Of a stretch of 32,000 nucleotides of DNA, positions 10,642 through 15,272 are shown piece by piece (the stretch's first letter is position 1; every line of letters starts with the position of its first letter). The DNA comes from Promethearchaeia archaeon (GTDB lineage: Archaea; Asgardarchaeota; Lokiarchaeia; Sigyniarchaeales; SOKP01): contig JAWOFX010000078.1 in NCBI GenBank assembly GCA_046497275.1, positions 1 to 32,000 on the forward strand, given 5' to 3'. A model generated the notes under the pieces. That model made no database searches and was not told the DNA's origin. It was given only the letters and a program-made list of their open reading frames with translations. A program made the position numbers and the translations under genes.

Positions 10642-12837
<2,196 letters not shown>

Positions 12838-12886: not shown

Positions 12887-13330
12887 ATGACGCCTGCAGA
12901 TAAATTGGAAAAGAAGAAAATAGAAGTTTCTTCTAAAGAATCAAAGATATCTAAGAGTAAAGTTAAAAGAGTATTATATTATATAGCAGGAACTTTTTTT
13001 TTATCCTTAGGGATTATCGGCATTATTTTACCCATTCTTCCGACCACACCATTTCTCTTATTATCCGCTGCTTGTTATGTACGAAGTTCAGAAAAAGCCT
13101 ATAATTGGCTAATTCATAATAAAATATTCGGTAAAATTATCCGAGATTATAGAGAAGGAAGGGGATTGCCTACAAAAATTAAGGTAATAACGATTATATT
13201 TTTATGGATAACAATTTTCATTTCAATTCTATTTATCACTATATTTTGGGTTCAAATATTATTAATCATCATTGCGAGTCTCGTCTCAATCCATATAGTT
13301 CTTATAAAACCAAAATCTCAGCAAAAATAA
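12887..13330 (+). CDS. ybaN: YbaN/DUF454 family membrane protein
   Basis: LGIIGIILPILPTTPFLLLSAACYVRSS...WL...FG..I signature. Confidence 0.85.
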   Translation: MTPADKLEKKKIEVSSKESKISKSKVKRVLYYIAGTFFLSLGIIGIILPILPTTPFLLLSAACYVRSSEKAYNWLIHNKIFGKIIRDYREGRGLPTKIKVITIIFLWITIFISILFITIFWVQILLIIIASLVSIHIVLIKPKSQQK

Positions 13331-13673
13331 GAAACTCTTTCTGGAAAAACTATTATTGTATCTTCAATGGTATGCTAAGAATTTCGTGTTATTTATTGTT
13401 TCAGACAAGTAGGATTCCAATATCGAATAATTTTACAATTGTAATAATATTGATATAGACTTTAGTCCTCAAACAATAAAAAAATATTTTTCTTAGAGTG
13501 GTTAAGAGTTTCGAGTTCTTTCTTCAATTAAAGTTTTTACATGCTCTGCAAATCGCTTCTCTATATTTCCGTTCCAAAATTTTTCTTAGTATGGGAATTC
13601 ATGATAAAATGAACTTTATTGATTAAACAGAGAGGGTAGTTTATAAATGAAATTATTTAAAAATGAAATCTAT

Positions 13674-13800
13674 AAAAAAAAATAACACAAGTAGTGAGAA
13701 AATTAGTATTTCTTACCAGACTTATTCTGGTCTGAAAAACCCAATTCAAAACAACTCACTACCCTAAACCCAAATTTATACCAAAAAGGTACAGATTTCT
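13674..13800 (-). ncRNA. Candidate structured ncRNA, copy 1 of a tandem pair (family unknown)
   Basis: Terminal stem GTAGTGAG (13691-13698)/CTCACTAC (13755-13762), hairpin ACCAGA/TCTGGT (13715-13731), 5' hairpin 13772-13798, TATA-like 13828-13838 upstream on the minus strand, and a U9 run (13674-13682) downstream. Confidence 0.45.
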
Positions 13801-14023
13801 GTTATAATAATCGTGAAATTTATCACATTTAAATTTAAGTGATGTAATAGTTTTTAAGAATGAGAAACATGTAGTGAAAATAAAATAGTATTCTTACCAG
13901 ACTTGCTCCGGTCCGAATTACTCAATTCACGGTTAAAACACTACAAAAACCAAAAAATCCGTATCAAAAAATTACACGGATTTACTTATTATTAAAATGT
14001 GATTCAAACCTTTTAAATTTAAA
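13691..14023. repeat. Diverged direct tandem repeat, period about 180-184 bp, two units
   Basis: Shared blocks at matching offsets: GTAGTGA (13691/13871), TAGTATT(T)CTTACCAGACTT (13704/13886), GGTC.GAA, CAATTCA, CACTAC (13757/13939), TTTAAATTTAA (13828/14012). Confidence 0.85.
13860..13986 (-). ncRNA. Candidate structured ncRNA, copy 2 of a tandem pair (family unknown)
   Basis: Terminal stem TGTAGTG (13870-13876)/CACTACA (13939-13945), hairpin 13896-13912, 10-bp hairpin 13955-13983, TATA-like 14012-14022. Confidence 0.45.
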
Positions 14024-14268
14024 CTATATAGATTATAGAAATTTTTATAGTTTACTTTCAGATCTAAAGAATTCTGTAAAATATCCTCATAAAGGTAGAG
14101 GTGAATCCAAATCATCAATTTATGAAGCTTCCTACTTTATGAAATCCAATTGATAGATAAACCAATGACAATATATTCTACTATCAATTTAAGAGCCGGT
14201 TTCTTTCGCCCATTTTTTTGGTCTTACAAAATGGATAATCTAAAAATCAGTTTATAATAAAAAAAATT

Positions 14269-14610
14269 TTATTTAAGCTTTTCAAAAAGCACTTGAAATT
14301 CTTTTTTAGCTTTAGATAATCCTAGTTGATCTAATAATTTTAAGGACTTCTCGTTAAGTTTATAAAAAGATCTATCTTCGGAGCGTTTATAATCATTCTT
14401 TTTTATGTTTTTAATTAAATTATGTTCTTTTAGTATACTGAGATGATAATGAAGAGAATTGTCTTGAATAGATGGTAACAAGGATTTCAATTGACTAAAG
14501 GATAGGGGTTTTTCACTTGCAAAGAGAGTAAGCAAAATCTTATATCGTGTCTTTTCAGATATGAGCTCTAATTCTTTTCTTAAATCTTTGTAATTTTGTG
14601 GGATATTCAT
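14269..14610 (-). CDS. Winged-helix (ArsR-like) transcriptional regulator
   Basis: RYKILLTL...LSFSQL...SLHYHLSILKEHNLI...FYKLNEK. No Cys, so no ArsR-type CxC metal site. Confidence 0.85.
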   Translation of the reverse strand: MNIPQNYKDLRKELELISEKTRYKILLTLFASEKPLSFSQLKSLLPSIQDNSLHYHLSILKEHNLIKNIKKNDYKRSEDRSFYKLNEKSLKLLDQLGLSKAKKEFQVLFEKLK

Positions 14611-14683
14611 ATGCTCACCTTTTTAATTTATTTTTATCGTTTCTTGACATGATATGAAAGTAAAATATCTATTTAAATCTAAC

Positions 14684-14712
14684 TCAAATCTCATTGAGTC
14701 AATGCAATTTGA
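14684..14712. promoter_or_regulatory. 29-bp palindromic operator between divergent TATA boxes
   Basis: TCAAAT-ct-CATTGA-g-TCAATG-ca-ATTTGA (12 of 14 arm pairs), flanked by ATTTAAAT (14671-14678) and TTATAAA (14717-14723). Confidence 0.6.
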
Positions 14713-14765
14713 AACATTATAAATTATAATAAGCTATTGGGTTTTTATTATATTTTTCATACATA

Positions 14766-15272
14766 ATGTATATTATGGAAATTTCTCATGATGATGATAC
14801 GTGGGAAATATTTTTGGATGAATTTATCGAAATATTCTCGATTGAGGGCTTAAGAAAGCAAAAAATTTTCATATGTGGATCCTATTCCAAAGAGAATTTA
14901 ACCACATTGAAAAAAATAAGGGAAGAAATCAATAACGAATCTGAAAAATATTTAGCTTTTCTCGAACTGAGCTTTAAAAAAACTCATAATGAGAATTTCA
15001 TTTTTAAATTTGATTTATTGGCAAGAATATCTGACGAGATTTTCATGGTCATCGAACATGATAAGGGAGGTCATATGATCGAATTGGGAATTATAATTAC
15101 CACAAAGGAGTTTTTAGAAAAAACGAATATATTGGTGTTAAAAGATGCTCCAATGACCCTTATGCTTAGCAGGGGCAGTCTGCTCACACCTTTTTTCATG
15201 GAAGACGAGAATCTATTTTATTTTAAAACAGTTTCAGATATAAAAGAGATAATAAATACACTCTATCCTTAA
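14766..15272 (+). CDS. Nucleoside 2-deoxyribosyltransferase (NDT)-like protein
   Basis: KIFICGS (beta-1), AFLE, LARISDEIFMVIE and GGHMIELG (GxxxELG catalytic-Glu motif). Confidence 0.65.
   Translation: MYIMEISHDDDTWEIFLDEFIEIFSIEGLRKQKIFICGSYSKENLTTLKKIREEINNESEKYLAFLELSFKKTHNENFIFKFDLLARISDEIFMVIEHDKGGHMIELGIIITTKEFLEKTNILVLKDAPMTLMLSRGSLLTPFFMEDENLFYFKTVSDIKEIINTLYP

Follow-up and report, generated by a model that had tools for sequence, protein, structure and literature searches.

A winged-helix gene and a DUF8170 gene as a putative autoregulated toxin-antitoxin-like pair in Lokiarchaeia and on haloarchaeal plasmids, with two apparently unrelated hairpin RNAs nearby

Two hairpin RNAs lie close to a winged helix-turn-helix (wHTH) gene and a divergent gene for a nucleoside deoxyribosyltransferase (NDT)-like protein in a Lokiarchaeial genome. 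This arrangement raises the question of whether the RNAs and the proteins work as one module, such as a retron without its reverse transcriptase (RT), as an earlier note on this DNA had proposed. The window, that is, the whole stretch of 32,000 nucleotides (nt) that was analysed, is part of contig C84 of a 3.85-Mb Lokiarchaeial (Promethearchaeota) metagenome-assembled genome (MAG), which is 98.9% complete and has about 29% G+C. The NDT-like protein of 168 amino acids (aa) belongs to DUF8170 (PF26508), according to a precomputed Pfam assignment that covers this protein and most of 120 listed relatives. The reading that we prefer, with a probability of roughly 55%, is that the two proteins constitute an autoregulated, toxin-antitoxin-like wHTH/N-glycosidase module, in which DUF8170 would be the toxin, and that the hairpin RNAs are unrelated to it. 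The elements of the locus are as follows.

13691-13762, minus strand: structured RNA candidate, copy 1, a 72-nt hairpin core; a neighbour, outside the module.
13871-13944, minus strand: structured RNA candidate, copy 2, a 74-nt hairpin core; a neighbour, outside the module.
14269-14610, minus strand: HTH_20/ArsR-type winged-helix gene, 113 aa; the DUF8170 partner and presumed operator-binding autoregulator.
14670-14678, no strand: TATA-like box TATTTAAAT, directly beside the palindrome.
14682-14699, no strand: palindrome ACTCAA-N6-TTGAGT between the divergent genes; presumed wHTH operator.
14775-15272, plus strand: DUF8170 (PF26508) gene, 165-168 aa; its open reading frame (ORF) opens at 14766.

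The wHTH gene, the divergent NDT-like gene with its motifs, the palindrome between them and the pair of RNAs were all found where the earlier note had placed them. The 168-aa ORF spans 14766-15272 (+), and the start used in the homologues is the ATG at 14775. Both RNA cores are located in a 940-bp ORF-free gap, which is bordered by a DUF454 gene (12887-13330) on one side and by the wHTH gene on the other.

Do the two proteins belong together? As judged from sequence, the wHTH and DUF8170 genes form an obligate, ancient and self-contained two-gene unit. Among 61 species-representative Lokiarchaeial loci, a wHTH orthologue adjoins DUF8170 in all 59 that are full-length. The pair is divergent in 58 of these, with a spacer of 135-174 bp, and convergent in one (L027), and the genes that flank it differ from locus to locus. 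The wHTH protein matches Pfam HTH_20 at residues 18-67 with 37.7 bits (cut-off 27), and the mean column identity of its orthologue alignment is 80%. The 168-aa protein has 171 close relatives with 52-76% identity; no NCBIfam model matched it. Within the phylum, DUF8170 was found in 61 of 134 genomes of one GTDB family, with one distant match besides, and the wHTH orthologue in 62 of the 134 (19 of the 36 high-quality genomes). The distribution is patchy, as befits an accessory pair: about half of the species carry it, and even complete genomes of one genus may be without it. An exhaustive profile search with DUF8170 returned 51 representative clusters only, including other Asgard lineages and Halorhabdus. 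Five of the six distant contexts that have upstream DNA (Halorhabdus, Asgardarchaeia and others) again show a divergent HTH_20/ArsR-type gene, and the Halorhabdus partner aligns over its full length with the Lokiarchaeial wHTH (hhalign probability 92.7).

Single loci with an altered pair or setting were also recorded. In the 100%-complete genome G147 (L106:2216-3514, contig C27), the wHTH gene is kept and a 269-aa putative cyclase-family gene stands in the place of DUF8170, so the wHTH is an orphaned partner there. In G006 from another Asgard family (L107:2509-3113, contig C183), the DUF8170 copy is split into overlapping ORFs of 76 and 159 aa, apparently by a frameshift, and the divergent 123-aa wHTH gene is intact. 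In one uncultured lineage (L099:4802-7435), the pair stands beside an NTP_transf_2 nucleotidyltransferase and UPF0175/DUF3368 gene pairs, a stretch rich in toxin-antitoxin genes.

Do the RNAs follow the pair? A covariance model of the RNA (R1) was searched over 135 genomes of the GTDB family, and its matches were restricted to genus g1: the source genome (G000) with two copies, G275, G277, and a weak, divergent copy in G278. Within this genus, the RNA and the protein pair were distributed separately. The source genome has the pair and the two adjacent RNA copies. The RNA is present and the pair absent in G275 (72% complete) and in G277 (92% complete, 10 contigs), whereas the pair is present and the RNA absent in G276 (97% complete) and in G273. 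In G278, the pair is on contig C22 and the weak RNA match on a separate contig, C226. The R1 search of 63 other pair-bearing loci (657 kb) gave no RNA match. The earlier note had proposed that the RNAs restrain the enzyme, and had named a lack of association between the RNA model and NDT/wHTH genes in advance as the outcome that would count against it; that lack of association is what was observed. Since the RNA and the pair fail to co-occur, the RNAs are best regarded as chance neighbours and not as a retron-like control element, and on this evidence they appear unrelated to the protein pair. The RT-less retron reading, which rests on a chance neighbourhood, is thereby removed as a false lead.

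What kind of protein is DUF8170? The AlphaFold2 (AF2) model (pLDDT 77) consists of an N-terminal helix (residues 10-23), which is amphipathic and family-specific, followed by a five-stranded alpha/beta core (residues 30-168). The top Foldseek rows for this model were an NDT and DNPH1 (E about 1e-3), and a wide fold search (VIA) returned MilB, putative NDTs and Toll/interleukin-1 receptor (TIR) domains at Z of about 11. In a second fold comparison, human DNPH1 ranked first (Z 13.3, root-mean-square deviation 2.7, 124 residues aligned), followed by Rcl and the CMP N-glycosidases MilB (Z 12.2), BcmB and BlsM; NDTs scored 10.4-11.2 and TIR domains about 11. Because the TIR domains also score about 11, the separation of the NDT-type match is modest. 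The description of the protein as NDT-like was thus borne out by its best structural matches, namely DNPH1, MilB and the NDTs.

G38, E97 and G102 are invariant across distant DUF8170 members, and S39, K81, F82, E106 and G108 are at least 90% conserved. The conserved motif reads E97-H-D-x-G-G-x3-E106-x-G, with E106 at the start of helix 102-112 in the AF2 model. The NDT/DNPH1 enzymes carry their nucleophile Glu on a loop-helix. By analogy, the E-H-D-x-G-G-x3-E-x-G stretch of DUF8170 parallels this loop-helix and would carry the nucleophile. From fold and motif together, DUF8170 is a putative NDT-superfamily N-glycosidase of the DNPH1/MilB type, and its profile likeness to the NDT effectors of type II-A retrons, though weak, adds to this.

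Do the two proteins touch each other? The complex model of the wHTH and DUF8170 scored 0.79, compared with 0.01 for the best of three controls. Of 80 solved complexes, 58 attained this level, as did 2 of 110 mismatched pairs; these counts apply here only roughly, since we supplied our own alignments. The contact agreement between runs was at least 98%, and the pLDDT of the partner was at least 84. In the modelled interface, the N-terminal helix and residues 77-88 of DUF8170 face helix 1, residues 44-47 and the C-terminal helix of the wHTH. The interface residues are invariant in both alignments, and include W13, F16, L17 and F20 of DUF8170. The model supports a direct, predicted binding of the wHTH to DUF8170.

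Is the pair under its own control? The TATA-like box TATTTAAAT is at least 90% conserved in an alignment of 59 intergenic regions and is probably the wHTH promoter. The palindrome, which directly follows this box, is near-invariant in the same 59 regions and has extended half-sites T[A/G]ACTCAA. A second AT-rich box is seen in the spacer alignment, nearer to the DUF8170 start. The haloarchaeal pairs have their own spacer core, an imperfect inverted repeat that is different but equally conserved. In the source genome, the exact palindrome occurs once (0.44 expected). A wider wHTH regulon was considered and rejected: one-mismatch variants were found at chance level in the genome search (16 against 16.5 expected), and therefore the wHTH appears to serve this locus only. 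Local autoregulation, as suggested in the earlier note, is plausible since both the wHTH/NDT-like unit and its palindrome are conserved; that much of the suggestion stands, and the binding of the operator by the wHTH is presumed.

Expression was looked at in metatranscriptome data. Contigs from salt-lake metatranscriptome libraries (two studies) match the locus with 100% identity over the 5' part of the wHTH gene, the interior of the DUF8170 gene and 13543-13803, the region around RNA copy 1. Those over the wHTH 5' part have their ends at 14630-14642, which leaves about 30 nt to the TATA-like box. These contigs are strandless and may include DNA carry-over, and they are a weak hint of expression. 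Four metatranscriptome runs gave no cover of RNA copy 2, 13804-14194 or 14643-14841, which in itself proves nothing. Sigma-70 and terminator scans were uninformative for an archaeon.

Where else is the pair found? A tblastn search with the Halorhabdus homologue identified 103 plasmid records from about 40 haloarchaeal genera, the best with 74-79% identity. Seven of the plasmid regions were inspected. In six, an HTH gene of about 136 aa is annotated in divergent orientation, and its spacer is constant at about 121 bp; in the seventh (H15), the annotation shows no gene at the HTH position. Most of the seven have an ArdC-like (or LtrC) gene on one side of the pair and an orc1/cdc6 or AAA-ATPase gene on the other; in some, DUF6610 precedes the block and polB follows it. 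Several of the pair-bearing plasmids are typed MPF_T. A family of haloarchaeal plasmids that carry a type IV secretion system (T4SS) has been described, with a conserved core that includes uncharacterised proteins (PMC13532300), and the pair-bearing haloarchaeal plasmids belong to this family. A tblastn search against 50,697 phage records gave no match.

The recurrent plasmid block (L114-L120, e.g. NC_006394.1 126688-139260) consists of DUF6610, an ArdC-like gene, a 108-aa hypothetical gene, the HTH/DUF8170 pair, orc1/cdc6 or an AAA ATPase, and polB. Several of its uncharacterised genes recur across the inspected plasmids.

These observations can be combined in the following mechanism for the preferred toxin-antitoxin-like reading. 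The wHTH would bind the palindrome between the divergent promoters and control both genes, and it would also hold the enzyme through the conserved N-terminal helix of DUF8170, as the complex model suggests. DUF8170 would cut the base off a nucleotide, for example a nucleoside 5'-monophosphate or an NAD-like compound. As long as the wHTH is made, the enzyme would be repressed and held. If the wHTH is lost through plasmid loss, proteolysis or infection, the enzyme may deplete nucleotides; this last step is the least certain.

Several points weigh against this reading. Toxicity, enzyme activity and DNA binding of the pair are properties that we infer. ArsR/SmtB proteins dimerise through helix 1 and the C-terminal helix; because the complex model uses these very helices, it could reflect an exposed dimer surface. 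Profile searches of PDB sequences (alignments A2 and A6) gave no NDT or DNPH1 match, and the PADLOC and Atlas likeness to retron effectors is weak (E about 1e-4, score 0.86). The pair is divergent, whereas classical type II toxin-antitoxin pairs are co-transcribed. The Lokiarchaeial pair is single-copy and lies among ordinary genes with no defence island; synteny is partly kept in Lokiarchaeia, for instance an ACT-domain neighbour in 22 of 60 loci, and the sequence divergence of the pair looks ordinary for vertically inherited genes.

Some of these same points fit a harmless enzyme, and this is the alternative that survives best, possible though on balance unlikely. DNPH1 clears hydroxymethyl-dUMP, and DUF8170 might similarly be a non-toxic N-glycosidase for nucleotide salvage or sanitising, with the wHTH as its local repressor or activator and the predicted contact as feedback control. 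The best fold matches, DNPH1 and the CMP/hmCMP N-glycosidases MilB, BcmB and BlsM, would fit such an enzyme, as would the housekeeping-type neighbours, the partial synteny in Lokiarchaeia and Halorhabdus, the single gene copy and a divergent regulator-target layout that is typical of local regulators. However, even complete genomes of a single genus differ in whether they have the pair, more than 100 haloarchaeal plasmids carry it in their backbone beside replication genes, and a confidently predicted regulator-enzyme complex is unusual for a plain repressor-target pair. The toxin-antitoxin-like module is moderately favoured over the harmless enzyme because of this plasmid-backbone placement, the patchiness and the predicted complex.

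A bolder and more doubtful version of the toxin-antitoxin-like reading is tentatively put forward. The pair might be an archaeal counterpart, standing on its own, of the effector module of type II-A retrons, namely an addiction or abortive-infection pair in which the wHTH represses and restrains a nucleotide-depleting NDT-like toxin. It would belong to the backbone of a large family of haloarchaeal plasmids of the conjugative type and would have become fixed in Asgard chromosomes. Type II-A retron effectors combine an NDT-like domain with a C-terminal winged helix (Mestre et al., PMC7736814), so the architecture given in the earlier note is correct. The 168-aa protein matches the PADLOC model NDT_II-A with E 2.5e-4, and the two NDT_II-A models gave 13 matches among 52 relatives (best 4.4e-5); this weak but recurrent similarity spans residues 30-123. 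The Atlas look-alikes included the STM3845 family (0.86) and Nuc_deoxyri_tr2 (0.76). Chains of the retron Ec86 effector were not in the top 50 rows of any fold search, and a relation is still possible. The longer homologues P0134 and P0155 have no wHTH part and hence are no fusions. The resemblance to retrons that had been proposed for this locus thus stands for the NDT-like fold and a weak NDT_II-A similarity, and for nothing else that is retron-like. If the counterpart reading were true, the pair would be a new toxin-antitoxin family, and this would hint that a pre-existing wHTH/NDT unit had been recruited by retrons.

Improbable, to our judgement, is a role in plasmid or chromosome maintenance without any toxin logic, such as replication control, post-transfer establishment or anti-defence; for example, as a component of the ArdC/orc1 backbone block, the pair might break down a nucleotide that serves the recipient as an immune signal. 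The ArdC-like and replication genes (orc1/cdc6, AAA ATPase, polB) near the pair in most of the seven regions would suit such a role, as would the MPF_T typing of several plasmids and the uncharacterised proteins in the conserved core (PMC13532300). However, in Lokiarchaeia the chromosomal copies are without ArdC, orc1 or T4SS neighbours, and the palindrome is confined to the spacer of the pair itself.

We also think it rather improbable that DUF8170 is a non-catalytic ligand sensor, acting as co-repressor or anti-repressor of the wHTH in a two-protein switch. NDT/TIR/SLOG-like folds also act as nucleotide sensors, and the surface covered by the predicted contact is formed by those wHTH helices through which ArsR-type proteins dimerise. 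However, distant members retain the catalytic-type Glu E106, E97 and the glycine loop, and such a switch would regulate itself alone since no further operator copies are present in the genome, which also speaks against a sensor.

Very improbable, finally, is the reading of the RNAs as an antitoxin or retron-like restraint on an NDT-like toxin, be it a type II-A retron that lacks its RT or a type III toxin-antitoxin system. In its favour, this one genome has the RNAs 320-920 nt away from the wHTH gene, and the protein is NDT-like, as in type II-A retrons. Yet the reading is contradicted by the co-occurrence data within genus g1 and at the 63 other pair loci, there are no tandem RNA repeats directly upstream of the enzyme gene, no RT is nearby, and the RTs of the assembly are all LINE-like.

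The 32-kb window has no RVT_1 match, in agreement with the earlier note. An RT elsewhere in the genome had been suggested as a check, and the assembly gave only two RVT_1 matches, both like long interspersed nuclear elements (LINEs), and no retron-type RT. They belong to two ORFs of about 1025 aa, which are 46% identical to each other, combine Exo_endo_phos (APE) with RVT_1 as in ORF2 of non-LTR (LINE-like) retrotransposons, and lie on contigs of 3.8 and 4.5 kb.

C81 (L108:442-3510), minus strand: APE+RT ORF with Exo_endo_phos and RVT_1.
C10 (L109:1250-4336), plus strand: APE+RT ORF with Exo_endo_phos and RVT_1.

None of 134 related genomes contained these ORFs, and because of this absence they most likely come from eukaryotic DNA that contaminates the MAG; were they genuine, this would be remarkable for an Asgard archaeon.

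What are the hairpin RNAs in their own right? They can be described as a small, genus-restricted family of structured RNAs. Both cores are closed by GTAGTGA.../...TCACTAC, and these are the only two copies in the 3.85-Mb genome. A scan of the whole window against Rfam (E up to 1) matched no family, and no tRNA or tmRNA was found in the scan for them. Copy 1 has a minimum free energy of -26.4 kcal/mol (z -4.05). The four sequences available, namely the two copies and the homologues in G275 and G277, share a common fold, an extended hairpin of 26 pairs. In this alignment, 96.2% of the cells are paired, compared with 24-52% in slid controls, and both partners are exchanged in five pairs, such as a C-G of the apical stem that is replaced by U-A. 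Covariation among four sequences gives modest but consistent support for a structured RNA. The mirror structure on the plus strand pairs 91.1% of the cells. The minus strand is likelier because five G-U cells turn into A-C on the plus strand, among them the G-U pair in the apical stem of copy 2, which becomes an A-C mismatch. On the minus strand, R1 scored 86.7 bits for copy 1 and 94.4 bits for copy 2. Promoters of the RNAs, read by eye, were ambiguous on both strands. C/D-box, H/ACA and K-turn patterns were compared by eye only, and neither box motifs nor a conserved ACA were seen.

BLAST of the RNA against the 135 family genomes gave clear homologues only in the same-genus genomes G277 and G275. 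BLAST and nhmmer searches of the own genome and 61 loci found nothing beyond the two copies. RNA-like matches of the own genome on contigs C185 and C38 were inside coding sequence and were set aside as chance; family BLAST matches of the RNA region at E 1e-5 to 1e-2 were likewise discarded, being mostly AT-rich spacer and not the cores.

The settings of the RNA differ between genomes. In G277 (L082:1485-1558) and G275 (L083:1205-1278), the single homologue lies 220-240 nt from a 185-aa flavodoxin-like gene, and the genes on its other side differ between the two. In the own genome, the RNA is duplicated at another place, and the best flavodoxin homologue is on contig C135. An inverted repeat, AATCCGT-N13-ACGGATT, is located at 13956-13982 of the window and is followed by a T-rich run on the minus strand; this terminator-like hairpin comes shortly before RNA copy 2, and the wHTH stop codon lies about 290 nt upstream of it. 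Further away in the window, a katG gene (10648-12837) has a G+C content of about 0.40-0.46, compared with about 0.28 in its flanks, and this composition is consistent with horizontal acquisition.

What is gained for DUF8170? The family is catalogued, and its function is undescribed in the literature searched; neither DUF8170 nor PF26508 gave any result in full-text searches. What this analysis adds is the pairing rule, the operator, the fold assignment, the predicted complex and the plasmid link. These extend known kinds, an NDT-like effector with a winged helix or a toxin-antitoxin-like logic, and open no new category. DUF8170 thereby obtains several handles: a core of the NDT/DNPH1 type, an obligate winged-helix partner, a defined operator and a place in the backbone of more than 100 plasmids. 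Experiments in Asgard archaea are hard, and the haloarchaeal pair offers a route to function. Since haloarchaea are genetically tractable, the function can be tested there directly and the result then transferred to the Asgard archaea.

How does the pair compare with known systems? Like the DNPH1/MilB/NDT enzymes, DUF8170 has a glycine-rich loop after strand 1 (C/L-G-S-Y). Unlike them, it has an additional conserved N-terminal helix and the invariant E97-H-D, and it is always paired with a wHTH gene; no sequence relation between DUF8170 and the PDB chains of these enzymes is detectable by hidden Markov models. The wHTH resembles the ArsR/SmtB-type (HTH_20, HTH_5) regulators in its small size, its winged helix with a C-terminal helix, and the position of its gene beside a palindromic site between divergent genes. 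Unlike these regulators, it is predicted to contact the neighbour protein through the helices usually used for the homodimer.

In type III toxin-antitoxin systems, the RNA repeats are tandem, lie directly upstream of the toxin gene and co-occur with it. Here, in contrast, the two diverged RNAs, spaced at 180 nt, are on the far side of the wHTH gene and probably do not share the strand of the enzyme gene. With the type II-A retrons, the pair shares the joining of an NDT-like, catalytic-type domain with a winged-helix module. It differs from them in that there is no RT and no msr/msd RNA, in that the wHTH, instead of being fused as a C-terminal domain, is encoded by a divergent gene of its own that has its own operator, and in that the DUF8170 system is archaeal and the similarity remote. 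The retron resemblance therefore holds as remote homology and as a shared domain logic, not as membership.

We know of no NDT-like toxin family that has been described as a classical type II toxin, and unlike in type II toxin-antitoxin systems, the genes of the pair are divergent and not arranged in one operon. Like type II toxin-antitoxin and addiction modules, however, the pair consists of two small adjacent genes with one putative DNA-binding partner and a palindrome at its own promoter; it has a predicted protein-protein complex, is patchy on chromosomes, and is plasmid-borne near replication genes.

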